From Gammaproteobacteria bacterium (GTDB taxonomy: Bacteria; Cyanobacteriota; Vampirovibrionia; Vampirovibrionales; JAJTHC01): 64,000 bases of DNA. Location: the NCBI GenBank assembly GCA_040375445.1, contig JBEISK010000005.1, positions 3,546-67,545 on the forward strand, in the 5' to 3' direction. Below are positions 8,234 through 60,248 of the stretch, in pieces; positions within the stretch are counted from its first letter, which is position 1, and each line of letters opens with the position of its first letter. The translations under genes and the position numbers were made by a program. The notes beneath the pieces were generated by a model. It saw nothing but the letters and a program-made list of their open reading frames with translations. It did not search any database and had not been told where the DNA came from.

Positions 8234-9001
8234 ATGAAAGCACTTTTTTCAAAACAAGCTTTGACTTTTGTCCTCGCCATGACTTTTAGTTTGGTCGGAC
8301 TGAATGCTGTTCATGCGATTGTTGTACAAAGTCAAAATGGTAATGTGGCTGATGAACAAGCCATTGCCGCTGAAATGGCACGTCTTGACGCACTTGCCGC
8401 TCAACAAGCAGCGGCTCAAGCGGCAGCGGCTCAAGCGGCCCAACAGGCGGCGGCCCAACAAGCAGCAGCTCAAGCGGCAGCGTACCAAGCGGCCCAACAG
8501 GCGGCGGCCCAACAAGCAGCAGCTCAACAGGCAGCGGCCGCAGCGGCGGCTCAACAAGCAGCTATAAATGCGGCAGCGGCTCAAGCATCTCAACTGGCGG
8601 CTCAACAAGCAGAAATAGCAAGACGAGCAGGTTTAACGCAAGGGCAACGTGATGCTGAAGATGCTGCTATTGCAGCTCAACAAGCGGCGGCTCAAGCGGC
8701 TCAAGCAGCAGCGGCGGCTCAAGCGGCTCAAGCAGCGGCGGCGGCTCAAGCGGCTCAACAAGCGGCTCAACAAGCGGCTCAAGCAGCGGCGGATCAAGCG
8801 GCGGCGGCTCAAGCGGCTCAACAAGCAGCGGCTCAAGCAGCGGCTCAAGCAGCGGCGGATCAAGCGGCTCAACAAGCAGCGGCTACAACGGCTCGCCTTG
8901 CACCATTTACTAAGCCTGAGAAAGTTAGCTTAGATATGGCAGCACAAAGTACGCTTTCACCTCAACGTCAGCTTAAAGCAAGAACTCAAAATTGTACATA
9001 A
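8234..9001 (+). CDS. Secreted Ala/Gln-rich repetitive helical protein
   Basis: AAGGA RBS; signal peptide ending NAVHA; QAAAAQ repeats encoded by caagcggcggct-type microrepeats. Confidence 0.8.
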   Translation: MKALFSKQALTFVLAMTFSLVGLNAVHAIVVQSQNGNVADEQAIAAEMARLDALAAQQAAAQAAAAQAAQQAAAQQAAAQAAAYQAAQQAAAQQAAAQQAAAAAAAQQAAINAAAAQASQLAAQQAEIARRAGLTQGQRDAEDAAIAAQQAAAQAAQAAAAAQAAQAAAAAQAAQQAAQQAAQAAADQAAAAQAAQQAAAQAAAQAAADQAAQQAAATTARLAPFTKPEKVSLDMAAQSTLSPQRQLKARTQNCT

Positions 9002-10666: not shown

Positions 10667-10794
10667 TGTCCCCCTCCTAATTTTAGGAGGGGGTTAGGGG
10701 GCGGTTAAACTCACCAACAGCGTCTAGGGTTTAACCTCACCCTCGAACGTCTAACGACGTTCTCTTCCCTCTCCTAAAATTAGGAGAGGGGACA
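10667..10794. repeat. Full-length family A element (REPIN/MITE-like, terminal inverted repeats)
   Basis: Left end tgtccccctcctaattttaggagggg; right end ccctctcctaaaattaggagaggggaca. Confidence 0.9.
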
Positions 10795-15360: not shown

Positions 15361-15490
15361 TTGTCCCCCCTCCTGATTTTAGGAGGGGGTTAGGGGGCGG
15401 TTAAATCCTCAAACGAAGTCTAGGGTTTAACCTCACCTCGAACGTCTGAAGACGTTCTCTGCCCTCTCCTAAAATTAGGAGAGGGGACAA
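15361..15490. repeat. Full-length family A element
   Basis: Colinear near-copy of 10667-10794 with the same terminal inverted repeats. Confidence 0.9.
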
Positions 15491-17793: not shown

Positions 17794-17941
17794 TTGTGTG
17801 TGTCAAAAAACGAGTTTTATGTGTCAGAAATAGGGGTTTCGTGTGACGAGAATCGGTATTTCGTGTGTCGAAAATAGGGGTTTCGTGTGTCAGAAATGAG
17901 GGTTTCGTGTGTCGAAAATTAGATTTCGTGTGTCGGAAATT
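17794..17941. repeat. Seven direct repeats with 21-22 bp period (iteron-like)
   Basis: Core TTTCGTGTGTC(A/G) starting at 17794, 17815, 17837, 17859, 17881, 17903, 17924 (first two degenerate). Confidence 0.85.
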
Positions 17942-23559: not shown

Positions 23560-25371
23560 ATGATGAACCCTCACGCTCCATTTCCCCCCAATGCCCAACG
23601 GCTCGATGCCCTAAGTACCCAGCAGGCTGTTGGAGAACTTCATGCCCTGTTTCAAGGGGCTAAAGTTCAAAAAATCAATCAATACAGCCCCACAGATTTT
23701 TCCTTTCACTTGTGGAAGCCCAACCCTGACAAGCACCCTGCGCTAGATCGGTGCTTTTTGTATGTCCATCTCAACAAGCAAAACCCCTTTTTCGCCATGC
23801 TCACCCACGACGAAGTGAAATCGATGTTTCCCACGGCAACACATCAAAGCCCCCTGCTGATGAGCCTGCGAAAATACTTGCAAGGCAGTCGTTTGGATGT
23901 CGCACAAAGCATAGCGGGTGAACCTGCTTTCACACTGGGCTTTAATTACAGCACCGAATTGGGCTTCAGGGCCTCGGTTAAGCTCGTGGTGGAAATGATT
24001 GGGAAATATAGCAACCTGCTTTTACTAGAAGGTGAAACACAAAAAATCCTTAACCTATTGAACGTCGTGAGTGACGAGCAAAGCCAGCTTCGTCCCCTTC
24101 ATGTGGGAACGCCCTACACCCCTCCCCCCCGTCCACAAGGCAAAACCCCTTGGACGAGCCTTGATTTGTCCCTATTATGGCCAACTGTCGACACCCCTTA
24201 TTCGGCAGAAACGGCATTTGACGCCATTAAGTCGGTGGGTTGGGGTATCGCTAAACATTTGGCGATGCCGTTACTAGAAACGGCACGCTCGTTTGAAGAA
24301 GCTCAAACCATTTTGAAGCAATGGGAAACGCATCCGCAGGGGGTACTGTTTCGAGATGCACATGGCGTCTTAACAGGTTTTCATGGCGTGGATGTCACAG
24401 GCAAAGGTGAAGCGGTTGGCTCGTCTCTACTTGCGGTGAGCGTTTATTACGGTTCGTGGAAGCAAGGGCAGTTGTGGGAAGAGGCTCGTCAACACTTACG
24501 CAAGCCCTTACGCAAGAAGCTAAACATACTCAAAAAAGGCTTAGAACACTTAAATACCAGTCAAGTCACGTCCCATACCCTAGACGATCTGCAAGTGAAG
24601 GGCGATATTTTAATGACGCTGTATAGTATGCGGCATTTCACGCAGGCAAAACCCTTTGAAAATACGTTTACGCCTGAAATGAATCCCTTAACAGGTGAAG
24701 CTGGCGAAGCGATTGATGTGGATGTCAAAAAAACGTGGCTCGAAAATGCCCAAGTCTATTACCGTTTGGTTCAAAAAGCCAAGGGTCGCAATACTTACAC
24801 GATTGAAGAACGCCTGCGTTTAGAAAACGAGCTTGCGTATTATAAGTCTTTGTCAGTTTTGTTGGAAAATGCCGAATCCTTAGAGGATCTTCATACCCTT
24901 GAAGCCGATTGGCGAGAGGCGGGCTTAGTAAAAGCGTTGAAATCAAAGGCTGGCAAGGGAAAAGCCTCTCCAAAAGCGGCGGCTGAAGAGGTGGGTGTTT
25001 TGAAGCTCACCAGCCCAGATGACTTGGTGATTTGGGTGGGGAAAAGCAGTAAAGCCAACGGTCAACTCATTCAGAAGCATTTGCGTCCGAAAGATTGGTG
25101 GGTGCATGTGGCGGAAGGTTTGTCGGGCTCTCATGTGGTGGTGAAGGTACATGGCACGCCGTGGGCAGACACGCCCAGCCTGCCGTTGCCCACACTCGCC
25201 ATGGCAACGGCTTTGGCGGCATGGTATTCCGAAGCACGTGACAGTGGGAAAGTGCCTGTTTTGTATACACGGGGCAAGTATGTTCGCCCCATTCCACAGT
25301 CATGGGCAGGGCATGTGAACTATTCGCATGAAGAAGCCCTCATGATCACCCCTCAAAAAGACGGGTTTTAG
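23560..25371 (+). CDS. rqcH: NFACT family protein RqcH/Rqc2 (FbpA-like)
   Basis: LRKYLQGSRL, LVVEMIGKYSNLLL, ENAQVYYR..KAK, NFACT-R IWVGKSSKAN..WWVHV..GSHVV. Confidence 0.88.
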   Translation: MMNPHAPFPPNAQRLDALSTQQAVGELHALFQGAKVQKINQYSPTDFSFHLWKPNPDKHPALDRCFLYVHLNKQNPFFAMLTHDEVKSMFPTATHQSPLLMSLRKYLQGSRLDVAQSIAGEPAFTLGFNYSTELGFRASVKLVVEMIGKYSNLLLLEGETQKILNLLNVVSDEQSQLRPLHVGTPYTPPPRPQGKTPWTSLDLSLLWPTVDTPYSAETAFDAIKSVGWGIAKHLAMPLLETARSFEEAQTILKQWETHPQGVLFRDAHGVLTGFHGVDVTGKGEAVGSSLLAVSVYYGSWKQGQLWEEARQHLRKPLRKKLNILKKGLEHLNTSQVTSHTLDDLQVKGDILMTLYSMRHFTQAKPFENTFTPEMNPLTGEAGEAIDVDVKKTWLENAQVYYRLVQKAKGRNTYTIEERLRLENELAYYKSLSVLLENAESLEDLHTLEADWREAGLVKALKSKAGKGKASPKAAAEEVGVLKLTSPDDLVIWVGKSSKANGQLIQKHLRPKDWWVHVAEGLSGSHVVVKVHGTPWADTPSLPLPTLAMATALAAWYSEARDSGKVPVLYTRGKYVRPIPQSWAGHVNYSHEEALMITPQKDGF

Positions 25372-25376
25372 GACTC

Positions 25377-26180
25377 TTACTGCCCGATTTGTTCAAACGT
25401 CGTTTGGGTCGGTTGGGCAAGATCTCTCCAAAATTTGGTAAGGGCTCGTTTGCCTTCTTGAAATTGTTCTACGACCCGCCCATGTGTTTCGCCTTGTTTG
25501 AGTGGAGGTAAGTTCAATATAACACTTCTAGAACCCTCTGGATTCGAATCTGAAGGAAGACGCAAATTCCCAAGTGAAGCGATCAGTTCTTGTTTGATTG
25601 CTAGTTTCCCTGGAACAATCAAAGAATCAGATGTTTCTTGAGCCCAAATTGTCGGAGCATTACCAAGTCCTGCTAATTCGGTGGTGTTAAACAAACTCGT
25701 ACTGGATCCTTTTTCATTTAACGAAGCAGGTGTTATTTGAGTGGTTAAACTAGCAGAAAGAGGTGCCGAGACAAAAGCCTGTAATTTGTTGGGAGTTTTT
25801 TTAGACAAATCTGCATGATCAATTCGACTCACTAACGTGGACGAGGAGTTTACCCTGCCGAAGTAGTAAAAAAGTTTTATCGCATGAGCCAAAACCTCGT
25901 CTATTGCAGAACCAAGTTCTCTATTTCTTGAAAACTGAATTTTTTGCTCCTTAGTACGAAAACGCAGAACGTCATTGGCTGGGGTAGTCGTCCTTCTTAT
26001 GCTTGGTACAATTTTTAAGGCCATGCCCTCCCAAGGGCTATCTCGTCCAACAAAGCTATTTACTAATTCCACATACCCTTTTACAAAGGCTCCCTGTGTC
26101 TTCGAATTAGCAAAGAGTAATCCTTGTCTTTGTTGAGTTGAGTTGAGTTGAGTTGAGTTGAGTTGGAGCGGACTGGACAT
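25377..26180 (-). CDS. Hypothetical protein with 5' (CAACT)6 tract; true start may be the out-of-frame ATG at 26197
   Basis: 267-aa ORF; stronger RBS (AGAGGA) precedes ATGs at 26200/26197 in another frame. Confidence 0.65.
   Translation of the reverse strand: MSSPLQLNSTQLNSTQQRQGLLFANSKTQGAFVKGYVELVNSFVGRDSPWEGMALKIVPSIRRTTTPANDVLRFRTKEQKIQFSRNRELGSAIDEVLAHAIKLFYYFGRVNSSSTLVSRIDHADLSKKTPNKLQAFVSAPLSASLTTQITPASLNEKGSSTSLFNTTELAGLGNAPTIWAQETSDSLIVPGKLAIKQELIASLGNLRLPSDSNPEGSRSVILNLPPLKQGETHGRVVEQFQEGKRALTKFWRDLAQPTQTTFEQIGQ
26136..26165 (-). repeat. Pentanucleotide SSR (CAACT)6
   Basis: Six perfect AGTTG units on the + strand. Confidence 0.95.
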
Positions 26181-26298
26181 AACCTACTAATGTTCATCAT
26201 AAAATCCTCTACATATTAAAAAACACAAAACACTAAAGATGCTATTGTAGTTTAATATGGTTAAATAGGGTTGTTTATGACAAAAGTGTTACAACTAT

Positions 26299-26763
26299 CT
26301 AAGCGTTTAAGGTGCTCAACATCCCGACACGACGTTCGTGACGCTCCCCTTCAAAGCGAGCATTCAACCACGCTTGAGTAATCACCGTGCCATACGCCCC
26401 TGAAACAAAGCGTCCGCCCATGCACAAGACGTTAGAATCGTTATGTTCACGGCTGAGTTGAGCCAAGTACGCATCATGCGCATGCACCGCCCGCACCCAA
26501 GGGAAGCGATTAGCCGCAATCGCCACACCCACGCCTGAACCACAGGTGATAATGGCTTTAGAAATGTCCGCTTCTTGCATGAAGCGTGCCACTTTTTCAG
26601 CAATCGACGGATAGTCCACCTTATCCGTTTCGCTAAAGCATCCCAAATCTTGCACATCATAGCCTTGTTGAGACAAGTAATCCGCCAAAACAGACTTTAG
26701 GGCAAACCCAGCATGATCGCACCCTACGACGATGCGTTTGTCGATGACATTTTTAATAGTCAT
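26299..26763 (-). CDS. rpiB: Ribose 5-phosphate isomerase B
   Basis: GCDHAGF, VDYP, CGSGVGVAIAANR, REHNDSNVLCMG, FEGERHERRV. Confidence 0.96.
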   Translation of the reverse strand: MTIKNVIDKRIVVGCDHAGFALKSVLADYLSQQGYDVQDLGCFSETDKVDYPSIAEKVARFMQEADISKAIITCGSGVGVAIAANRFPWVRAVHAHDAYLAQLSREHNDSNVLCMGGRFVSGAYGTVITQAWLNARFEGERHERRVGMLSTLNA

Positions 26764-27584: not shown

Positions 27585-27648
27585 CCATCGATTATCTCCA
27601 TTTTCGCAAAGAAGTTAATTGCAACAAAATAAAAAGGATTTAAACACC

Positions 27649-28842
27649 ATGAAATTTCTTACAGCAGGCGAGTCTCACGGGCCAGGTTTAACCATTTTAC
27701 TCGACAACATTCCCGCAGGTATTCCGATTTCGTCTGAATTAATTAACAACGATTTACGGCGTCGCCAAGGCGGTTACGGTCGTGGCGGTCGCATGTTGAT
27801 TGAAAAAGACACCGTACGTTTTTTGGCAGGCGTGCGTTTTGGAAAAACCACGGGCGCACCGATTGCGTTATTCATCGAAAATAAAGATCATAAAAACTGG
27901 GCAGGCATCATGGATGCAGAAGGTGAGCCTACTGATGAAAAAGCCTTCGTTCGTCCACGCCCTGGTCATGCGGATTTGGCAGGCTTTTACAAGTATGGTT
28001 TGACGGATTTACGAGATGCGCTTGAGCGAGCGTCCGCTAGAGAAACGGCGGCTCGTGTAGCGGCAGGTGGCGTGGCGAAAGCTTTATTAAAAGCCGTAGG
28101 CATTGATGTCTTTAGTTACGTGCATGTGCTAGGCGGAAAAGCCTTGCCCATTGGCGAAGGCTTAGATTACACGCAGGATGTAGACGCTTTTATTGCCTAT
28201 GTGGAAGGCAACAATCTGCGTTGTGCGAGTGATGATGCCACCCAAGTCGCCGTTCGTCAATACATTGATGAGGTTCGCAAAGCAGGGTCTACCTTAGGTG
28301 GTGAAGTGCATTGCGTGGCAACAGGCGTGCCAGCAGGTTTGGGCAGCTATGTGCAGTGGGATCGCAAGCTCGACGGGCAGTTGGCGCAAGCTGTGATGTC
28401 GATTCAAGCGGTGAAAGCTGTGGCGATTGGCGATGGTGAGCAGGGGTCTTTGGTAGACGGTTCCGTGTTTCACGATGAAATTCGTCTAAATGCCGACAAG
28501 CAGGTGGTTCGTCCCACGAATCGATCAGGGGGCTTAGAAGGCGGTGTGACCAACGGACAACCGCTTTTGGTTAAAGCGTGGATGAAGCCGATTGCGACCT
28601 TGATCAAACCCTTAATGAGTGTGAACTTAGACACGCAAGAAGAAGAAGTGGCTCACTTTGAACGCAGTGATGTGACGGCGGTTCCTGCCTGTGCGGTGGT
28701 GGTTGAAGCCATGACGGCATTGACGCTTGCCAAAGCCCTCACCGAAAAGTTTGGCATGGATCACTTGGGCGACATTCAAGCAGGGATTGCTCACTATCAA
28801 GCCCGTTTGACGCCAGCTCCTGTGGGCGAACATTCGACTTGA
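27649..28842 (+). CDS. aroC: Chorismate synthase
   Basis: TAGESHG, RRRQGGYGRGGRM, RPGHADL, ERASARETA, SGGLEGGVTNG, MKPIATL, ERSDV. Confidence 0.97.
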   Translation: MKFLTAGESHGPGLTILLDNIPAGIPISSELINNDLRRRQGGYGRGGRMLIEKDTVRFLAGVRFGKTTGAPIALFIENKDHKNWAGIMDAEGEPTDEKAFVRPRPGHADLAGFYKYGLTDLRDALERASARETAARVAAGGVAKALLKAVGIDVFSYVHVLGGKALPIGEGLDYTQDVDAFIAYVEGNNLRCASDDATQVAVRQYIDEVRKAGSTLGGEVHCVATGVPAGLGSYVQWDRKLDGQLAQAVMSIQAVKAVAIGDGEQGSLVDGSVFHDEIRLNADKQVVRPTNRSGGLEGGVTNGQPLLVKAWMKPIATLIKPLMSVNLDTQEEEVAHFERSDVTAVPACAVVVEAMTALTLAKALTEKFGMDHLGDIQAGIAHYQARLTPAPVGEHST

Positions 28843-35209: not shown

Positions 35210-35795
35210 ATGTTGTCTGTCTCCTCTCCTCTCCTCTCCTAATACACCCACTCGTGTCGCAAAGGGGGCTTCTCAGTCGGCTCATCAGCAACGAGACGGA
35301 GCACTCTTTAAGGCACTAGTTAACAATACCCATCCGAATCAAAACAAAATTATTTACACTCTTCCACCCTTAATACTTAGGTTATCCCCTGATATTATTC
35401 CAGCAAACGACCAAACAGGCTTTTTCTCAAATGTCAATACTTTCCCTGGAGGTACCTCTTTTAACTTTAAGAACTTCTACAGTTTTAGGATTAAGAGTCC
35501 GACTCAGAAAGGTTGGCTTATTGCAGTGGGAGAACATTTACCCAAAGTCAGAGCTATAGATGAAATAAGCCAGACTAAAGAAATTGTCAGTGACCCAAAA
35601 TTGAAAGAAGAACTAGATTCACTAGAGATTGAATTGGTTACAGATCTAGCAAAGCAAGTCCCTAATTACACGATTAAGAACAAAGAAGGTGTGCTTACAT
35701 TGATTCGAGATATTGTTCTAAGCTTGGGGGAGCCTTGGAGTCCAGAAAACATAGAGAAGGTTATAGCCAAAATGAATGAGTATTCCTTTTCTTAA
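35210..35795 (+). pseudogene. SSR-frameshifted (putatively phase-OFF) hypothetical gene
   Basis: AAAGGA RBS + ATG 35210 reads MLSVSSPLLS*; the frame from 35241 is stop-free (NTPTRVAKG...) into ORF 35526..35795; a (CTCCT)4 tract lies at the junction. Confidence 0.75.
35221..35240 (+). repeat. Pentanucleotide SSR (CTCCT)4
   Basis: ctcctctcctctcctctcct, starting 11 nt after the A of ATG 35210. Confidence 0.9.
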
Positions 35796-42163: not shown

Positions 42164-44266
42164 CTACTCTTCCATGTTAATGGACGCCACTGCCTGCACC
42201 TTCACATCAGGGATGAGTTCGCTGTACGCCAAAACCACCGAATTGGGCAGGTGTCGGTCTAACAGCTCAAACAACGGCAAGCGAATACGAGGCGAGCATA
42301 AGATCACAGGCGGTCTTCCATAATGCTGTTGCACCATGCGAGACGTGTCACTAATGGCTTGAATCAACTGTTGCACCTGCATCGGATTCAACAAGAACAT
42401 GACGCCCAATTCCGTGCGTTGGCAGGCTTCATCCAACACGGTTTCCCATTCGTTAGACAAGGTCGCCGCCAGTAACTGCTTGGTTTTATCCGCATGAGAA
42501 ATACAGATTTGACGACCTAGTGAAGCCCTTAATCGTTCTGAAAGCGTGTCAGATTCTCGGCTAAATCGAGCGTAATCACTCAAGCGTTCAAAAATGAATT
42601 GAATGTCTTTAATCGACACTTTTTCTCGAATGAGGTTGACGAAAATCTTACGTAAGTCATTGGGCGTCAACATATTCGGCACGAGTTCTTGAATGACACT
42701 TGGATCACTACCCCGCATCAGCTCCATGAGCTTAAGTACATCAATTTTCGTCATCACATCATCGACGTATTTAATCACCACCATTTGCAAGTGAGTAATC
42801 ACGGCATCGGTCGATTCAACCGCCACGGTCTGCAATTGTTCAGGAATATCCGCTTGAGCCACCCATAAGGCAGGCACGTTCAAGGCGGAATCCGTGCCTT
42901 GAATGACTTGAGCAGGCTGCGCGACGCCATAGGTGTCAAAATAACTTTGCAAAATCATGTAATAACCAGGGTAAACCTTGCCTGTGGCGACAGGGTTGCC
43001 TCGAATGGAAATGAGGTATTCGTAAGGTTCAATTTCGGTGGAATCCATAATGCGGATGTTGGGTAGAATGAAGCCGAGTTCATCGGTTAAGCGAGTCCGC
43101 AGACCTGCAATTTTACCGAGCAACTGCCCGTCTTGCTCAGGGTCTGCAATTTGAAGGAGGCTTGCCCCCACTTGAAGACTAAGTACATCGACGCCCATTC
43201 GTTCGTACATACGGTTGGGATCAATCATTTGTTGCATGTTTTCTTGCACTTCTTGCAATTCACCCATTTGAGCCTGAACATCGCTGGTGATGAAGACGCT
43301 AAACGCCATGCCCCCTAGAATCATAGCAAACAGGACAAAAGGCCACCAGCTTAAACCTGTAATGGAAGAGGTCACCGCAATAAAGAGCAAGAACATCGCC
43401 GCAAAAATAAGACCATACGGCTTGCCACGAAACTGGGTGAAGAAATCTTTCGCCAAACTGTCGGAAACACTGGTGGTACGCGTCAGTGTAATCCCAATCG
43501 CCACGGACATAATCAAGGCAGGAATCTGTGAAGCCAAGCCGTCACCGATTGTTAGAATCGTGTATTTATTGACGGCTTCCATAATCGGTAAGCCTTTCAT
43601 CAAAACCCCAATGGCAATACCCCCCACGATGTTAATAATTGTGATGATAATCGCCGCAATCGAATCTCCTTTGACGAACTTCATGGCACCATCCATCGAA
43701 CCCAACAGGGACATTTCCCGTTGCAAGTTTTCACGCAATTGCCGTGCTTGATCAGGTCCAATAAAGCCTGCGTTTAAGTCGCCATCGATCTGCATTTGTC
43801 GACCGCCCAAAGAGTCGAGAGCGAATCTCGCCCCAACTTCCGCCACACGTTCCGACCCCTTGGTAATAACCATAAAGTTCACGGTTAAAATGATTAAGAA
43901 CAAAATCGCCCCAACCACCATGTTACCGCCTGTAACGAATTCTCCGAAGGCTTGCACCATCTGCCCCGCATGACCATGTGCCAAAACGGCACGAGTAACC
44001 GCAATCCCCAACGCCAATCGAAACAGGGTAGACACCAAAATCAAAGACGGAATCGCCGCCAAATCCAGAGGTTGCTTAACGTACAAGGACATCATGAGCA
44101 AGACCACGGAAAGGCTGATGTTAAAGGCAATGGAAGCATCCATAAACCAATCAGGCAAAGGCACCAAAATGATCAAAATTAGAATAAGCACGCCAACAAC
44201 CAGCAATATCTCACTAATAGGAGGAATTGCAAAGGCGTTGTTTGGAGGAGCGTCGGACATCATCAT
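42164..44266 (-). CDS. flhA: FHIPEP-family type III export protein FlhA/SctV
   Basis: TLFRLAL, VITKGSERVAEVGARF, DGAMKFVKGD, LTIGDGLASQIP; cytoplasmic domain with LIREKVSIKD and VLAYSEL. Confidence 0.92.
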   Translation of the reverse strand: MMMSDAPPNNAFAIPPISEILLVVGVLILILIILVPLPDWFMDASIAFNISLSVVLLMMSLYVKQPLDLAAIPSLILVSTLFRLALGIAVTRAVLAHGHAGQMVQAFGEFVTGGNMVVGAILFLIILTVNFMVITKGSERVAEVGARFALDSLGGRQMQIDGDLNAGFIGPDQARQLRENLQREMSLLGSMDGAMKFVKGDSIAAIIITIINIVGGIAIGVLMKGLPIMEAVNKYTILTIGDGLASQIPALIMSVAIGITLTRTTSVSDSLAKDFFTQFRGKPYGLIFAAMFLLFIAVTSSITGLSWWPFVLFAMILGGMAFSVFITSDVQAQMGELQEVQENMQQMIDPNRMYERMGVDVLSLQVGASLLQIADPEQDGQLLGKIAGLRTRLTDELGFILPNIRIMDSTEIEPYEYLISIRGNPVATGKVYPGYYMILQSYFDTYGVAQPAQVIQGTDSALNVPALWVAQADIPEQLQTVAVESTDAVITHLQMVVIKYVDDVMTKIDVLKLMELMRGSDPSVIQELVPNMLTPNDLRKIFVNLIREKVSIKDIQFIFERLSDYARFSRESDTLSERLRASLGRQICISHADKTKQLLAATLSNEWETVLDEACQRTELGVMFLLNPMQVQQLIQAISDTSRMVQQHYGRPPVILCSPRIRLPLFELLDRHLPNSVVLAYSELIPDVKVQAVASINMEE

Positions 44267-44346
44267 TTATTTGGATTCTTTACGAGTTTGGCATTTATTC
44301 ATTATAGAGGATGAACATTACATTAGTATAAAGTATGTAGAAAGGT

Positions 44347-45264
44347 TTAATGTTCGTCGAAGGCAGGAGCATCCCACGTTTGGAGGGTAGCATCGCCTTC
44401 AAGCAAGTGATCAAACTCAGCTTCGGCGGAAGATTGCGAGGCGATCGCCACATTCGGCAAGCCTAAAATCTTGCGAATCATGTGAAGTTGCGTGGTAAAC
44501 GTCGCATCAATTTGCCCACCAGACGTTTCTACAATGCAACTACCTAAGTCCACTTCGGCGTCGCCCACCACAATAATATGGCGCTGCACTTCGCCTTGCC
44601 ACGTTTCTTCATGTTCTTTAATATGTTGACGCAAAAATTTCACATCGCTGGGGTGTACTTTAAACACCACTTCTTTCTGGGTGCGATCCACCTTGCCTAA
44701 AACATCAAGAGCGATACCCACGACCAAGGCACGATCGCACGACAATTCCACCTTAATCAAGCGCTGGGCGATCGCCATTGCCATGGGGGCAATGTCTTGC
44801 ACAGATTTTTCAAGCACTTGGCTTTTAATCGTATCCAACTGGTCTAAAATCTGCCAAATCGCTTTGGACGATTCTTCGGCTTCTTTCATGCCTTCGACGT
44901 AACCATTTTGCTTGGCTTCTTCAAAGCCTGCTTGATACCCTTGTGGATGTCCATCCTGATAACCTTTGTTATAACCCGTATCATAAGCGTCTTGATAGAT
45001 GGCTTGCGGGTCTAAAGGGGCTTCATGGTCACTACGGCGACGCTTATAGGTGCTGGGGTCTTGGGGAACTTGTGTTTCTTCCCAAACCAGTTGATTCAAG
45101 AAATCATCGTCTGACGATGTGGGGGCTGTTGGTGAAGACACACCTGCTTGCTGATGAGCCACTTGGGCTAGCCACGGAGGCAACGGCTCCCCTGTGGGAA
45201 GCGTCCCATGACTGGTGGGGTTTTGTGTGGCTTGTTGTGAACGAATCCGTTTAATCAGAGGCAT
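44347..45264 (-). CDS. fliH: FliH/SctL ATPase-regulator
   Basis: GxxxG run (GYNKGYQDGHPQGYQAGFEEA), KVHPSD, GSCIVETSGGQIDA. Confidence 0.9.
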   Translation of the reverse strand: MPLIKRIRSQQATQNPTSHGTLPTGEPLPPWLAQVAHQQAGVSSPTAPTSSDDDFLNQLVWEETQVPQDPSTYKRRRSDHEAPLDPQAIYQDAYDTGYNKGYQDGHPQGYQAGFEEAKQNGYVEGMKEAEESSKAIWQILDQLDTIKSQVLEKSVQDIAPMAMAIAQRLIKVELSCDRALVVGIALDVLGKVDRTQKEVVFKVHPSDVKFLRQHIKEHEETWQGEVQRHIIVVGDAEVDLGSCIVETSGGQIDATFTTQLHMIRKILGLPNVAIASQSSAEAEFDHLLEGDATLQTWDAPAFDEH

Positions 45265-45307
45265 AAGGGGTTTCTCTTTATAGTGGGAGCTTCAGTCGTG
45301 TTGAGAT

Positions 45308-46510
45308 TTAGGCAAGAATGGTATTGTAGTAATTGAATAGGGCTTGTTCGAGTTTCGGCGTCCACTGCGGGATTTGATTATACCCGTTGGAGTGCTTATG
45401 TACAAGTCCTGCTGCCTTAAATAGACGTTGTATTTCAATACGTTCACCTTGCATCAAGTTTTCTAGCACCGTTCGGTTGTCAGGGCGTGCTAAAATATCA
45501 CATAGGGCGTGACGTAGGCGTTTTTCTTGGGCATGGGGATCTTCAGCCACCGCCTTAACGTTGTGTCTAAAGTCATTAAGCTTTTCAAGCACTTCATTCA
45601 TGGGCAGTTCTTGGGCAATATTTTCTACATTCATATAATGAATAATCTGATTACCCACCCCAGAAGGGAACTGATTCAACCATTCATTTTGAAGTGGAGG
45701 GGCTTGCGTCGTTAAAAACAAAGCGAGTGCCGCCAATTTAAGTTGCACATGCTTGGTATTCTGATGAGGTATCGCCACAGGTTCTGGCGGAGGGGCAGGG
45801 GCATACATCGCTTCATAAGACTGAAGGGCTTGAGGCGACGGCATGGTCTGAATAGGCACTTGGCGATTCATGGGTGAAGCTGGAACGTCTTTTTCATCAA
45901 AAAGAGGAGCCTCTTCAAGAGGCAGTTCAGCTTGAGGGGTTTTATTAAATCGATTCGTGGGAGCATCAGGGGGCATGTCTTCTTGCCCAATCGGGCCATG
46001 AATATTTTCATATTCGCCCAAATAATGGTGCAAGGCACTGGCGACCATTTGCTCCATCCAGCTTTCAAGTTGGGCGTCATCAAACTGCAATTCGGGCGTC
46101 GCTTCTTGCCCTACGGTGGCGGAAACAAACTGCTTGGCTTGAAAGAAGGCATCTTTCGCCAAACCTTGCAAAATGACTGATTTAGGCTCGCCTTTTAGAT
46201 TGTGTTCTTGAGCCTTTTCACTGGCATGAATAATTGCATGGGTAAATAGCGACAAAACCTTATAGCAGTGCCCCACATTAAAGGCCAAATAAGGAGCCTT
46301 AGGATCCTGCGGTTGAAACCCTGGTTCTTGCTGAAGTAAGCCCACCGCCACTTGAATAAAGTGAGCCGTAATATCCGCCGAACGTTTAATTTCACTGATA
46401 TTTAAGCCTGAACTACTGAGGGCTTCCGTGACTTTCTCGGCAAACTCCACCGAAAGGGCTTCGGCGTTCATGGAAATAATCAAAGGATCCACAGGGGGAC
46501 GTTTTGCCAT
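45308..46510 (-). CDS. Hypothetical protein in the fliG position, with a FliG-like segment
   Basis: Between fliF and fliH; LKLAALALFLTTQAPPLQNEWLNQFP..QIIHYM resembles one FliG helical repeat. Confidence 0.55.
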   Translation of the reverse strand: MAKRPPVDPLIISMNAEALSVEFAEKVTEALSSSGLNISEIKRSADITAHFIQVAVGLLQQEPGFQPQDPKAPYLAFNVGHCYKVLSLFTHAIIHASEKAQEHNLKGEPKSVILQGLAKDAFFQAKQFVSATVGQEATPELQFDDAQLESWMEQMVASALHHYLGEYENIHGPIGQEDMPPDAPTNRFNKTPQAELPLEEAPLFDEKDVPASPMNRQVPIQTMPSPQALQSYEAMYAPAPPPEPVAIPHQNTKHVQLKLAALALFLTTQAPPLQNEWLNQFPSGVGNQIIHYMNVENIAQELPMNEVLEKLNDFRHNVKAVAEDPHAQEKRLRHALCDILARPDNRTVLENLMQGERIEIQRLFKAAGLVHKHSNGYNQIPQWTPKLEQALFNYYNTILA

Positions 46511-46531
46511 GCGTGAGTCTCCTTGTTTTCC

Positions 46532-48286
46532 TTATTCTGCGGAACTTAACCATTGAGCAATATTCATATCCTGCGGACGAATCGCTGGGGCATCGTTGGA
46601 CGCATTCTTCATGTTTTCATTCAATTCCTTCAGGGCATCTTTCAGTTTTTCAACGCTCTGTTGGCGGGTGCGTTCAAGCACTTGATGCTGTTCTTGTTGG
46701 GCTTGCATCAACTGTTCATTCAGCTGTTGCTGATACTGCAAGTGCGTTTGCGTTTCTTCCGCATGTTGACGCAATTGCTGTAATTCGTTAATCGCCGAAT
46801 CCAAGGTTTCTGCGGTATGCTGTGTCTTTCCACTATTACCCATAAACATCATAATGGCAACCGCTCCTATTACCGTAATCGCCATCCAAGGGAGCCACGT
46901 CATCACGCCAGCCGCCGTTTCAGGGCTTAAACCTGGCAATAAAAAGCCAGCGGTATTCATCGGCGGTTCAGGTAAAGGATCTTCTCCTGCCAAAGGCTTG
47001 GGGTTTTCAAAATCGGTGCGAGCCAAGCTCACATTCAACGGATTGACTCGTGGGCTTGCGGAACGAGCAATCAAGACTTGTAAATCTTCAGGCGGAATGT
47101 TAGGGTAGTAATCGTCATCAATCGTCACCGCAATCGAAACATCTTCCACCATACCCGGTACGCTGGTTTCCACCCATTGCGTATGCCCGTTTTGATAGCT
47201 CACTTCCGTGCCTTCACGCAAGTAGCCGTCGTTACTGCTACTTTTGGATATATTTTCCATAGACTGCATGGATTGACCGATCGCCACTTTACTGTCGAGT
47301 TCAGGGGGTAAGAATCCCGAAACAGGTCCACTGGCTTTACCGTTGGAACTGGAACTTCCTCCACTACCACCGAGTGTTTCTTGAAAACGTTGCTTACTTG
47401 CCACTACTGATTTGGATGGATCAAAGTTCTGCACCATGGTTTCTTTGGGCGATTCACGCAAGAAGGTCGAAACTGTCACCACATAACGCCCTTCGCCAAT
47501 GAGCTTGTCGAGTTGAGCCGCCACTTTTTGCTTCATGTAAAAATCTTGATCCGCAGCCTTGTCTTGCAATTCTAAGGCGGAATCTAGCACACTATTATAG
47601 GTATTGCCGTTGGTGTCCGACAGTGCCACATGCTTGGCTTCCAACCCTTGAATACCCCCCACCATTAAATTGATGACGGCTCTGACTTTGTCTCGTGTGA
47701 GCCGTTCACCAGGAGGCAACGTCACTTGCACCGCCGCCGACGGAGGCTTACGATCGCTGGCAAAAAGCGTGGGGTCTGCTATTGAAATTTTCACATGGGC
47801 GTCTTCCACAGGGGGCATTTTGCGGATGATTCTGGCCAAATCGCCTTCTTGCCCACGAATGAGTTTGATCTGCTTTTCTTCACGGCTTGCCATCATATCG
47901 CTGGTGTCAAAGGCTTCCATGCCGAGCTTGCCGTCCATTAAGCCTGATTGAGCGAGAGTCAGCAGAGCTTGATCCCGATCGTTTAAGGTGGCATCTTCCG
48001 CAAACATCAACGACACTTTGCCCCCTGTGCCAGCGAGGGTATCGAGGCGGATGTCTTGCCGAGAGAGTAAGGCTCTGATTTCGACGGCTTTACCTGCGGC
48101 GATGTCGGTGGCTAAAGGGAGCTGTTCTTCGCTCAGGACTTTCGCCCCTTCATCGACCTTGACTGCTTTGCCTCCACTGCCTGCGACGGCTGTGATGATA
48201 ATAATCACCACAAGCAGAACCACCCCTCCGATGATCGAAAAGAAGAGTCTTCTATTTTCCATTAAGGCTTGCAATTGTGGAGGCAC
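46532..48286 (-). CDS. fliF: MS-ring protein FliF/SctJ-like
   Basis: Two TMs; GMEAFDTSD..SREE..RGQEGDLARII..VEDAHVKI..LF..PPSAAV..HVALSDTNG (YscJ/FliF ring motif). Confidence 0.85.
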   Translation of the reverse strand: MPPQLQALMENRRLFFSIIGGVVLLVVIIIITAVAGSGGKAVKVDEGAKVLSEEQLPLATDIAAGKAVEIRALLSRQDIRLDTLAGTGGKVSLMFAEDATLNDRDQALLTLAQSGLMDGKLGMEAFDTSDMMASREEKQIKLIRGQEGDLARIIRKMPPVEDAHVKISIADPTLFASDRKPPSAAVQVTLPPGERLTRDKVRAVINLMVGGIQGLEAKHVALSDTNGNTYNSVLDSALELQDKAADQDFYMKQKVAAQLDKLIGEGRYVVTVSTFLRESPKETMVQNFDPSKSVVASKQRFQETLGGSGGSSSSNGKASGPVSGFLPPELDSKVAIGQSMQSMENISKSSSNDGYLREGTEVSYQNGHTQWVETSVPGMVEDVSIAVTIDDDYYPNIPPEDLQVLIARSASPRVNPLNVSLARTDFENPKPLAGEDPLPEPPMNTAGFLLPGLSPETAAGVMTWLPWMAITVIGAVAIMMFMGNSGKTQHTAETLDSAINELQQLRQHAEETQTHLQYQQQLNEQLMQAQQEQHQVLERTRQQSVEKLKDALKELNENMKNASNDAPAIRPQDMNIAQWLSSAE

Positions 48287-59621: not shown

Positions 59622-60248
59622 ATGAAAACGGCTTCGTTCAATGCGTTTACTAGTTCACCTATGGCGATGCAACACCCTTTGGCAAAGAATCAAAAAGCGT
59701 TGGGGCAATCCCAGCGTGAAGGTTTCAGTATTTTAATCCCCTTAAGTCCTTCAGAAGTAGCGGCAAAAAACTCATTAAATTATTCAGCTTTGAAACCTAT
59801 AGACTTGAAAAACATACTCCGTGTTCCTCCTGAAGAAGGTATCACTTTTACGGATGCTGCTAAGAATGATTCTAGCTATAACAGAAGAATACTTAACTCA
59901 ACCGAAGCATCGAAGTTGTCTTTACGGAATCTAAGTTATGTATTGAATCCATACGGCTTGGACATTGGTATTGTTATAAATCCAGATAGATTGGTACGCC
60001 CTAGGTTTACGGCGCTAATCACCCCAAAACAAATGAAAGGAGAAAGATCTAGGCTTGTAATCCCAGTTCTCGGAATCAAAGATCCGATTCAGGTAGGAAC
60101 AAAATTCACTTTAGCTAAAGATGCAGCAACATCCATCATAGATGAAGTTATAAGGGTATTTTCGGAGAAAGAACTAAAAATTATAAAGGAAAGGCTTATA
60201 GGACAAAGGGGTCCCCTTAACGCACTTATTTCAGGCTTATCCATTTAA
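59622..60248 (+). CDS. Hypothetical protein
   Basis: 208-aa AT-rich ORF with GAGGA RBS; no family recognised. Confidence 0.7.
   Translation: MKTASFNAFTSSPMAMQHPLAKNQKALGQSQREGFSILIPLSPSEVAAKNSLNYSALKPIDLKNILRVPPEEGITFTDAAKNDSSYNRRILNSTEASKLSLRNLSYVLNPYGLDIGIVINPDRLVRPRFTALITPKQMKGERSRLVIPVLGIKDPIQVGTKFTLAKDAATSIIDEVIRVFSEKELKIIKERLIGQRGPLNALISGLSI

Follow-up and report, generated by a model that had tools for sequence, protein, structure and literature searches.

The 64,000-nucleotide stretch analysed here (hereafter the window, corresponding to G000:C47:3546-67545, where G000 denotes its genome) contains, on the minus strand, an orphan gene with a perfect tandem array of the pentanucleotide CAACT shortly behind its start. 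We propose, with a probability of roughly three in four, that this (CAACT)n tract is a simple sequence repeat (SSR) that acts as a slipped-strand phase switch of translation at the 5' end of the gene, where the leader is encoded. The locus has several of the hallmarks by which phase variation is commonly recognised: the repeat is perfect, its unit is not divisible by three, and it lies inside the open reading frame (ORF) near the start; a one-unit change toggles between a full-length and a truncated frame; the tract differs in length among close relatives while its flanks are kept; and SSRs are over-represented at gene 5' ends beyond chance. All coordinates given below are window positions unless a contig is named.

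The start region is compact. Reading along the minus strand, the rpiB stop codon is followed by a 98-nt spacer, the Shine-Dalgarno (SD) motif AGAGGA, TTTT and the tandem start codon ATG ATG, after which the codons AAC ATT AGT AGG TTA TGT CCA GTC CGC TC lead into the tract, which begins 35 nt behind ATG 26200 and continues as AAAGACAAGGA. The codons CAA CAA AGA CAA GGA, which encode the QQRQG motif closing the leader, overlap the last four bases of the tract. TRF scored the array at period 5 with 6.8 copies and 100% matches (score 68), in agreement with the preliminary description of this DNA, which had been made from the letters and a list of ORFs and counted six perfect units. A 20-nt (CAACT)4 probe found the tract as its sole match in the window and had 0 matches in 100 dinucleotide-preserving shuffles of it. 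According to a genome-wide SSR list, (CAACT)6.8 is the longest 5-mer SSR of the 1.91-Mb genome G000, where the only other 5-mers with at least 4 units are (TCTCC)4.2 in the window and (CTCCT)4 on contig C43. The 98-nt spacer is largely kept in the related genome G005, and of the homologous proteins eight open with MMN or MMK and another, P0014, with MN. The promoter-like site in the spacer (see the table) is the only match in the region, and it is weak because the shuffles averaged 2.6 matches.

At six units, the frame that opens at ATG ATG reads MMNISRLCPVRSNSTQLNSTQLNKDKDYSLLIRRHREPL and then meets a stop codon, while the long ORF of 267 aa lies in a different frame, its first ATG being the one at 26180, within the leader's TTA TGT codons. 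Between ATG 26200 and the codons for TQQRQG lie 62 nt, or 2 modulo 3, so that five or eight units bring the start and the body into one frame and six do not. The preliminary description had anticipated these points: it had assigned the best-spaced SD motif to ATG 26197, from which the frame ends early, had called the gene phase-OFF at this start, and had reasoned that one unit fewer would fuse the SD-led start to the long ORF. Indeed, the N-terminus predicted for that fusion, MMNISRLCPVRSNSTQLNSTQQRQGLLF, is exactly that of the public protein P0001.

Tract length varies between alleles and between species. The ortholog in G005 is syntenic, with the NFACT gene on one side and rpiB on the other; its SD motif and ATGATGAAC are unchanged, only (CAACT)3.8 follows behind degenerate units, and the gene is in frame (MMNLNRLLPVRPISTQLNSTQQRQGLLF). 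An alignment of the two DNAs places a 5-nt indel in the tract, and point differences are what make the G000 units perfect. Among public proteins, a period of five residues equals three 5-nt units, and 5-aa periodic runs therefore imply pentanucleotide tracts. P0001 (275 aa, 91% identical to the window protein; MMNISRLCPVRSNSTQLNSTQQRQG) implies five units, the predicted ON form, as do P0011 and P0003 (MMNLNRLLPVRPNSTQLNSTQQRQG), whereas P0006 and P0002, with one LNSTQ more, imply eight. P0014 (MNISRLCPVQLNSTQLNSTQQRQG) implies six units with a flank that is 5 nt shorter and is in frame. Other pentanucleotide units at the tract site are implied by P0010, MMNISRLCPV(QFSSV)5..(TQPNP)2TQQRQG, and by P0013, MSSSVQFSS(TQPNP)3TQQRQG, and P0012 has no tract. 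The call of P0013 begins at the alternative ATG, which means that this allele, too, is out of frame with the canonical start. Overall, the canonical start is in frame in 10 of the 12 alleles with a visible N-terminus, the exceptions being G000 and P0013. Three further proteins (P0007, P0008 and P0009) have no N-terminus, starting at internal V residues, and were excluded from this tally; reading them as OFF alleles was dropped, as they could just as well be genes cut off at the end of a contig, at the junction of the conserved 5' part with the variable body. A lack of length variation among relatives, which the preliminary description had named among the observations that would speak against a switch, is thus not what the alleles display.

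Metagenome assemblies point in the same direction. In run X2, one contig spans the locus in 1496 nt compared with 1501, with 7 gap letters, of which +1 and -1 fall near 25378-25382, and a cover of 8.42 compared with 9.34 in the bin 26116-26166; together these figures place a deficit of 5 nt in the tract bin, corresponding to five units. In X1 (the probable source run), X3 and X4, the Logan contigs enter the tract from either side and break off after about 30 nt (k-1). Since a k=31 graph is not expected to branch at a single 34-nt tract, the breaks would call for tracts of at least 36 nt or for mixed lengths in these runs. They suggest that longer or mixed tract lengths exist in the samples, of which other strains could be the cause. 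The same breaks in the probable source run leave the unit count of the assembly unconfirmed by independent contigs, and one might ask whether the sixth unit arose in sequencing or assembly, the true allele having five. We consider this very improbable: a read is much longer than the 34-nt tract, which lies mid-way in a 70-kb contig, homopolymer-type sequencing errors do not commonly affect pentanucleotide units, and the 267-aa call from this 70,041-nt contig is also found in the public protein set.

A different question is whether the six-unit allele is OFF at all. Translation from ATG 26180 would yield a 267-aa protein devoid of the first leader residues, in which case tract length would select among two N-terminal isoforms and a null state. 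The public annotation uses this in-frame ATG as the start; the homologous ATG (MSSS...) is also where the call of P0013, on another contig, begins, and in a gene on contig C22 with a C14 tract and a leader of the kind described below, the out-of-frame SD-ATG is followed after 10 nt by an ATG that is in frame. However, the SD scan found no motif before ATG 26180, for which a well-spaced ribosome-binding site had already been missed in the preliminary description, while SD-like motifs precede 33 of 42 assigned starts of genes with such leaders. Moreover, the alternative ATG is not conserved, being replaced by CTT CTT in G005 and missing from all LNRLL-type alleles, and ribosomes from the strong upstream start would cross it in another frame. 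We therefore regard internal initiation as an unlikely explanation and continue with the OFF reading of the six-unit allele.

The orphan gene does not stand alone in its genome. In the genome-wide SSR list, numerous poly-C tracts, 4-mers and 5-mers follow ORF starts at a distance of some dozens of nt, and about 45 orphan genes have a common design, with the opening M[LM]xxx..[FY]xP, an acid-free spacer rich in S/T/P/A/Q/N, an invariant QRxG motif and an unrelated body. The pattern [STHAQ]xQRxG occurs within 110 codons of a frame opening 61 times, as compared to 8-29 times for eight control motifs. Apart from one listed paralog pair, the bodies have no mutual similarity and hence no common domain, and none of the 40 bodies tested had a Pfam domain above the cut-off. 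Counting without six SSRs at contig ends, 13 of the 79 frame-shifting SSRs of the genome lie within 150 nt upstream of the 61 motif matches, a territory of 0.48% of the genome in which 0.38 would be expected; for five control motifs the numbers were 0, 1, 0, 0 and 0. The preliminary description had also named, as speaking against a switch, SSRs that are no more frequent at gene starts than elsewhere; instead, frame-shifting SSRs are concentrated roughly 34-fold at the 5' ends of one gene family. Among the runs at contig ends, C16:1-77, C18:4238-4311 and C46:53817-53856 of G000 are poly-C/poly-G runs of 14-74 nt that resemble sequencing artefacts and were dropped from the counts.

Pentanucleotide SSRs with at least 4 units are found in family leaders in 3 of 3 cases and tetranucleotide SSRs in 2 of 4, and C-runs of at least 8 (lengths 8-16) occur in 13 of 47 family leaders compared to 8 of 972 control ORF starts. 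Different loci have different units (CAACT, TCTCC, CTCCT, CAGT, AACC and poly-C), and all leader SSRs are C-rich on the coding strand. In total, about 18 family members have a frame-shifting SSR in the spacer, either poly-C of 8-16 or a 4-/5-mer. In nine members, the leader ATG (SD-led by scan in 8 of them) is out of frame with the body, each time with an SSR in between: this gene, the gene at window position 35210, C22:38917, C53:31002, C54:53418, C54:39313, C65:61990, C15:69007 and C43:113097. No SSR-free out-of-frame gene was found among the 47 members. Upstream of the assigned family starts GAAAGG-type SD motifs are enriched, and a k-mer search of the upstream regions for a common family promoter brought out mainly such SD-like GAAAGG.

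The second pentanucleotide gene of the window is likewise OFF, as the preliminary description had expected. Its SD-ATG reads MLSVSSPLLS and then stops, while the ..HQQRDG.. body runs from 35283 in another frame; the ATG lies 73 nt before the motif, and one additional unit would make this 78 nt and restore the frame. Elsewhere, this gene has 2 units in G002 and long imperfect CTCCT/TCTCC blocks in G005, and in both it is in frame. Mononucleotide tracts vary as well: the C22 gene has a C14 tract and is OFF in G000, while its tract is interrupted and the gene ON in G003, and a C54 gene is OFF with C14 in G000, whereas its G003 homolog (29% identical) is ON with C9. Loss of mismatch repair does not account for the number of SSRs, as G000 encodes both MutS and MutL.

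Several further SSRs came to our attention. In the first 400 kb of the complete same-genus genome G007, (CTCA)9 at L065:2781-2816 lies behind an SD-ATG leader (MMKINLLNSRSS), and C14 at L072:11308-11321 lies behind an SD-ATG (MIQPT...) whose frame is closed while another is open; both genes are without QRxG. In G000, (AG)8.5 at C28:55335-55351 and (AG)7.5 at C58:20953-20967 end 8 nt before the ATG of a 262-aa and a 224-aa gene, respectively, in the position of the ribosome-binding site, and (TC)11 at C36:17876-17897 lies about 80 nt upstream of a gene. These AG and TC dinucleotide tracts are possible expression-level SSR switches.

Could the tracts be mere by-products of slippage that serve no purpose? 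On such an account, repeats drift within a low-complexity spacer, and the six-unit allele is a recent null and an incipient pseudogene. The predominance of in-frame alleles looks as if purifying selection removed frameshifts, the gene is dispensable in that it was found in 2 of the 41 related genomes searched (G000 and G005), and its body evolves very fast, with an amino-acid identity between these two genomes of 42.8% compared to 91.5% for NFACT, 97.4% for RpiB and 99.2% for the DUF1292 protein, another housekeeping neighbour. Neutral drift, however, should favour in-frame 3-, 6- and 9-mers, and none of these is present in any of the 47 leaders, whereas 1-, 4- and 5-mers are strongly enriched. 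Furthermore, perfect tracts of at least five units recur in most alleles with differing unit sequences, and the nine OFF loci of the family are OFF solely through their SSR, their bodies still being open over 126 to 253 codons. Based on these observations we judge non-adaptive drift to be rather unlikely, though the most serious competitor of a switch.

Other points weigh against the switch, as does the narrow distribution of the gene. The unit counts of the public alleles were deduced from N-terminal amino-acid periodicity and not from DNA, and only 2 of 12 alleles are out of frame, a picture that rare deleterious frameshifts would also give. The length differences were seen at the level of alleles and contigs (22 runs, all as contigs), and switching within one population is thus a prediction. 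The searches gave the orphan protein neither a function nor a signal peptide nor a usable structure model, and hence no selective reason for switching it. As to the family, its 47-member list was picked by eye from the pattern matches, and consensus run lengths of C14-C16 may be off by one in short-read assemblies. For two family bodies, no homolog turned up in the nine remaining genomes of the genus, and at 90% identity four further family proteins with SSRs form singleton clusters, which makes these loci uninformative at strain level. Finally, QRxG was not enriched in the first 400 kb of G007 (3 matches, with 1-6 for the controls).

Taken together, we favour the following scheme for the proposed switch. 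Ribosomes would start at the conserved SD motif and ATGATG, and the tract lies in a low-complexity spacer that would tolerate changes in length. Whenever replication added or dropped a 5-nt unit, the body, from QRQG onward, would move into or out of frame; five or eight units would be ON, while the six units of this assembly would be OFF and give a 39-aa peptide. Such changes are presumably caused by replication slippage, and they would be reversible, occur at a high rate and might be beneficial. With many SSR-bearing leaders, a cell population could hold many ON/OFF combinations of the family proteins.

Table. Positions of the elements of the switch region, of further family members and of neighbouring genes in the window.
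Feature	Position	Strand	Remarks
Promoter-like site TTGTCA, 18 nt, CATATT	26254..26283	-	between rpiB stop codon and start codon
Shine-Dalgarno motif AGAGGA	26205..26210	-	4 nt before ATG 26200, 7 nt before ATG 26197; identical in G005
Canonical tandem start ATG ATG (MMN...)	26195..26200	-	kept in G005 DNA
Alternative ATG	26178..26180	-	in the frame of the long ORF at six units; no SD motif; start of the public annotation (P0005)
Perfect tract (CAACT)6 + CAAC	26132..26165	-	encodes the ...NSTQLNSTQ... spacer; TRF, probe
QQRQG codons	26121..26135	-	invariant QRxG motif closing the leader
Dead-end frame from the canonical start at six units, 39 codons	26081..26200	-	predicted OFF product
Orphan gene body	25377..26180	-	no family assignment; AF2 pLDDT 33, helices predicted
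Second family member with pentanucleotide tract	35210..35795	+	SD-ATG at 35210, (TCTCC)4.2 at 35220-35240; OFF
Third family member (MKTASFNAFTSSPMAMQHPLAKNQKALGQSQREG...)	59622..60248	+	no SSR, in frame
NFACT/FbpA-type gene	23560-25371	+	
rpiB	26299-26763	-	
ORF, presumably aroC	27619-28842	+	judged by eye
Second flagellar-type gene set	42164-48286	-	FliF-like (584 aa), unknown 400-aa gene, FliH, FlhA

Searches for relatives of the orphan protein returned few. No Pfam, NCBIfam or PADLOC family was assigned, the ESM Atlas gave no usable match, the best hit of a profile search against the PDB had E=1, and the AlphaFold2 (AF2) model built from 10 sequences was unusable. Only 4 matching clusters (members at least 90% identical) were found among 5.8 billion proteins, and a profile search of 1.84 billion representatives found 6 proteins, three of them additional to the cluster matches. 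One protein, P0015 (1481 aa, E 5.9e-4), matched in 10 short stretches and was disregarded as a probably spurious hit. When metagenome contigs were scanned with the protein alignment, none of the 595 pattern matches was a relative; L003 and L004, picked up with the 20-nt start-region pattern, were unrelated chance matches.

Where the gene could be compared, its parts have different histories. Between G000 and G005, the first ~185 nt align at DNA level together with the upstream spacer and genes, and the last ~100 nt align together with the NFACT gene, while the middle ~540 nt (window 25473-26015 and L002) cannot be aligned. Among the public alleles, the leader types ISRLC and LNRLL occur with body types A and B in all four combinations (P0001, P0002, P0006/P0011 and P0003/P0004), which indicates that leader and body are reshuffled by recombination. 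The orphan gene is a fast-evolving mosaic.

The genome G000 comprises 71 contigs with 46% GC and a completeness of 94.6%. The window stretch is held by 20 runs from 14 studies, mostly labelled as freshwater or lake metagenomes, and one homolog of the orphan gene is labelled 'MAG: Vampirovibrionales bacterium' at NCBI. Repeats of other kinds are also present in the window: an intergenic tandem array at 17798-17940 (period 22, also scored as 44 and 66, ~6.6 copies, 74-82% matches) with the consensus GTGTGTCAGAAATAGGGGTTTC; a 255-aa ORF at 8234-9001 on the plus strand, most of which is made up of repeats 9, 27 and 54 nt long (such as GCGGCTCAA) and which encodes a Gln/Ala-rich repeat protein; and an array of the 25-nt repeat TTAGGAGGCGG present both at 10683-10707 and at 15379-15403, 4.7 kb apart.

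G000 encodes two FlhA, two FliF, two or three FlhB, three secretins and a prepilin peptidase. A further FlhA, FliF and FlhB are encoded outside the window, and the second flagellar-type set, that of the window, could serve dual flagella or be a derived export apparatus. Assigning its FlhA to the injectisome protein SctV was not supported, the FlhA match scoring 633 bits and the SctV match 546 bits, both below the equivalog cut-offs. A type IV secretion system (T4SS) as in V. chlorellavorus was also considered, and no VirB4 match was found in G000 at its above-mentioned completeness. A type IV prepilin or pseudopilin leader, which ends in G ahead of a hydrophobic helix of about 20 residues with E at +5, was rejected as well: an alignment of the 47 members has polar or mixed residues behind QRxG, and since no hydrophobic segment follows the conserved glycine, the family are not prepilins. 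N-terminal signals of type III secretion are disordered, rich in Ser/Thr/Pro/Gln and poor in acidic residues, a description with which the S/T/P-rich, acid-free composition of the QRxG leader would agree.

It is conceivable, albeit doubtful, that a predatory or epibiotic Vampirovibrionales cell exports the ~45 QRxG orphans, that their leader is a new export or processing signal, and that the SSRs in ~18 of the leaders provide combinatorial bet-hedging against variable prey, hosts or phages in a free-living relative of cyanobacteria. Export might then use the divergent FliF/unknown gene/FliH/FlhA apparatus located 16 kb away in the window, although linking this second flagellar-type apparatus to the QRxG leader is speculation. 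Each cell line would display a different random subset of the QRxG repertoire.

If the switch is confirmed, it would mark these orphans as proteins that are sometimes costly, for example because they are surface-located, secreted or exposed to phage or prey, and the combination of QRxG leader and SSR would offer a handle for finding such orphans in other genomes. It would also be a warning to annotators, as public calls such as the 267-aa protein would start at the wrong ATG. To our knowledge, nearly all SSR contingency loci described so far belong to host-adapted pathogens; what we propose is a known kind of switch in an unexpected lineage, that of the non-photosynthetic relatives of cyanobacteria, and in a large orphan family. 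Our literature search returned nothing relevant that links Vampirovibrio to phase variation, and no mention of Melainabacteria or Vampirovibrionia in this context. The genome paper on V. chlorellavorus, in the parts accessible to us, proposes T4SS-based predation and does not mention SSRs (PMC4451040).

The closest parallel is found in the opa genes of Neisseria. There, as here, the unit is 5 nt long and the tract lies in the N-terminal, leader-coding part directly behind the start, the reading frame sets the ON or OFF state, and many paralogs with their own tracts give rise to combinatorial expression; the opa repeat unit is CTCTT. In available portions of the literature, opa is described as a multigene family with pentanucleotide repeats in the leader-coding part, whose state is called from the repeat number (PMC7157529), and N. 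gonorrhoeae is given 11 phase-variable opa genes (PMC11868660). Neither homology to Opa nor a Sec signal peptide was found for the orphan protein (no Pfam/NCBIfam match and no hydrophobic N-terminal stretch). On sequence grounds, the orphan gene thus appears to work like opa without being a member of the Opa family. In contrast to Neisseria, the leader here does not represent a Sec signal peptide, nor is the protein a known outer-membrane barrel; the units vary between loci and even between alleles, and the organism is an uncultured freshwater member of the Vampirovibrionales rather than a host-restricted pathogen. A further likeness exists to the poly-G/C tracts of Campylobacter (PMC8355987) and the tetranucleotide loci of Haemophilus influenzae (PMC2651432), which, in the accessible parts of these reports, likewise form genome-wide sets of frame-shifting SSRs in 5' coding regions. 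Their targets, as far as those parts go, are mostly genes for surface glycans, flagellar modification, lipooligosaccharide (LOS) and restriction-modification, while the genome studied here encodes MutS and MutL and all of its targets are orphans with a common leader.

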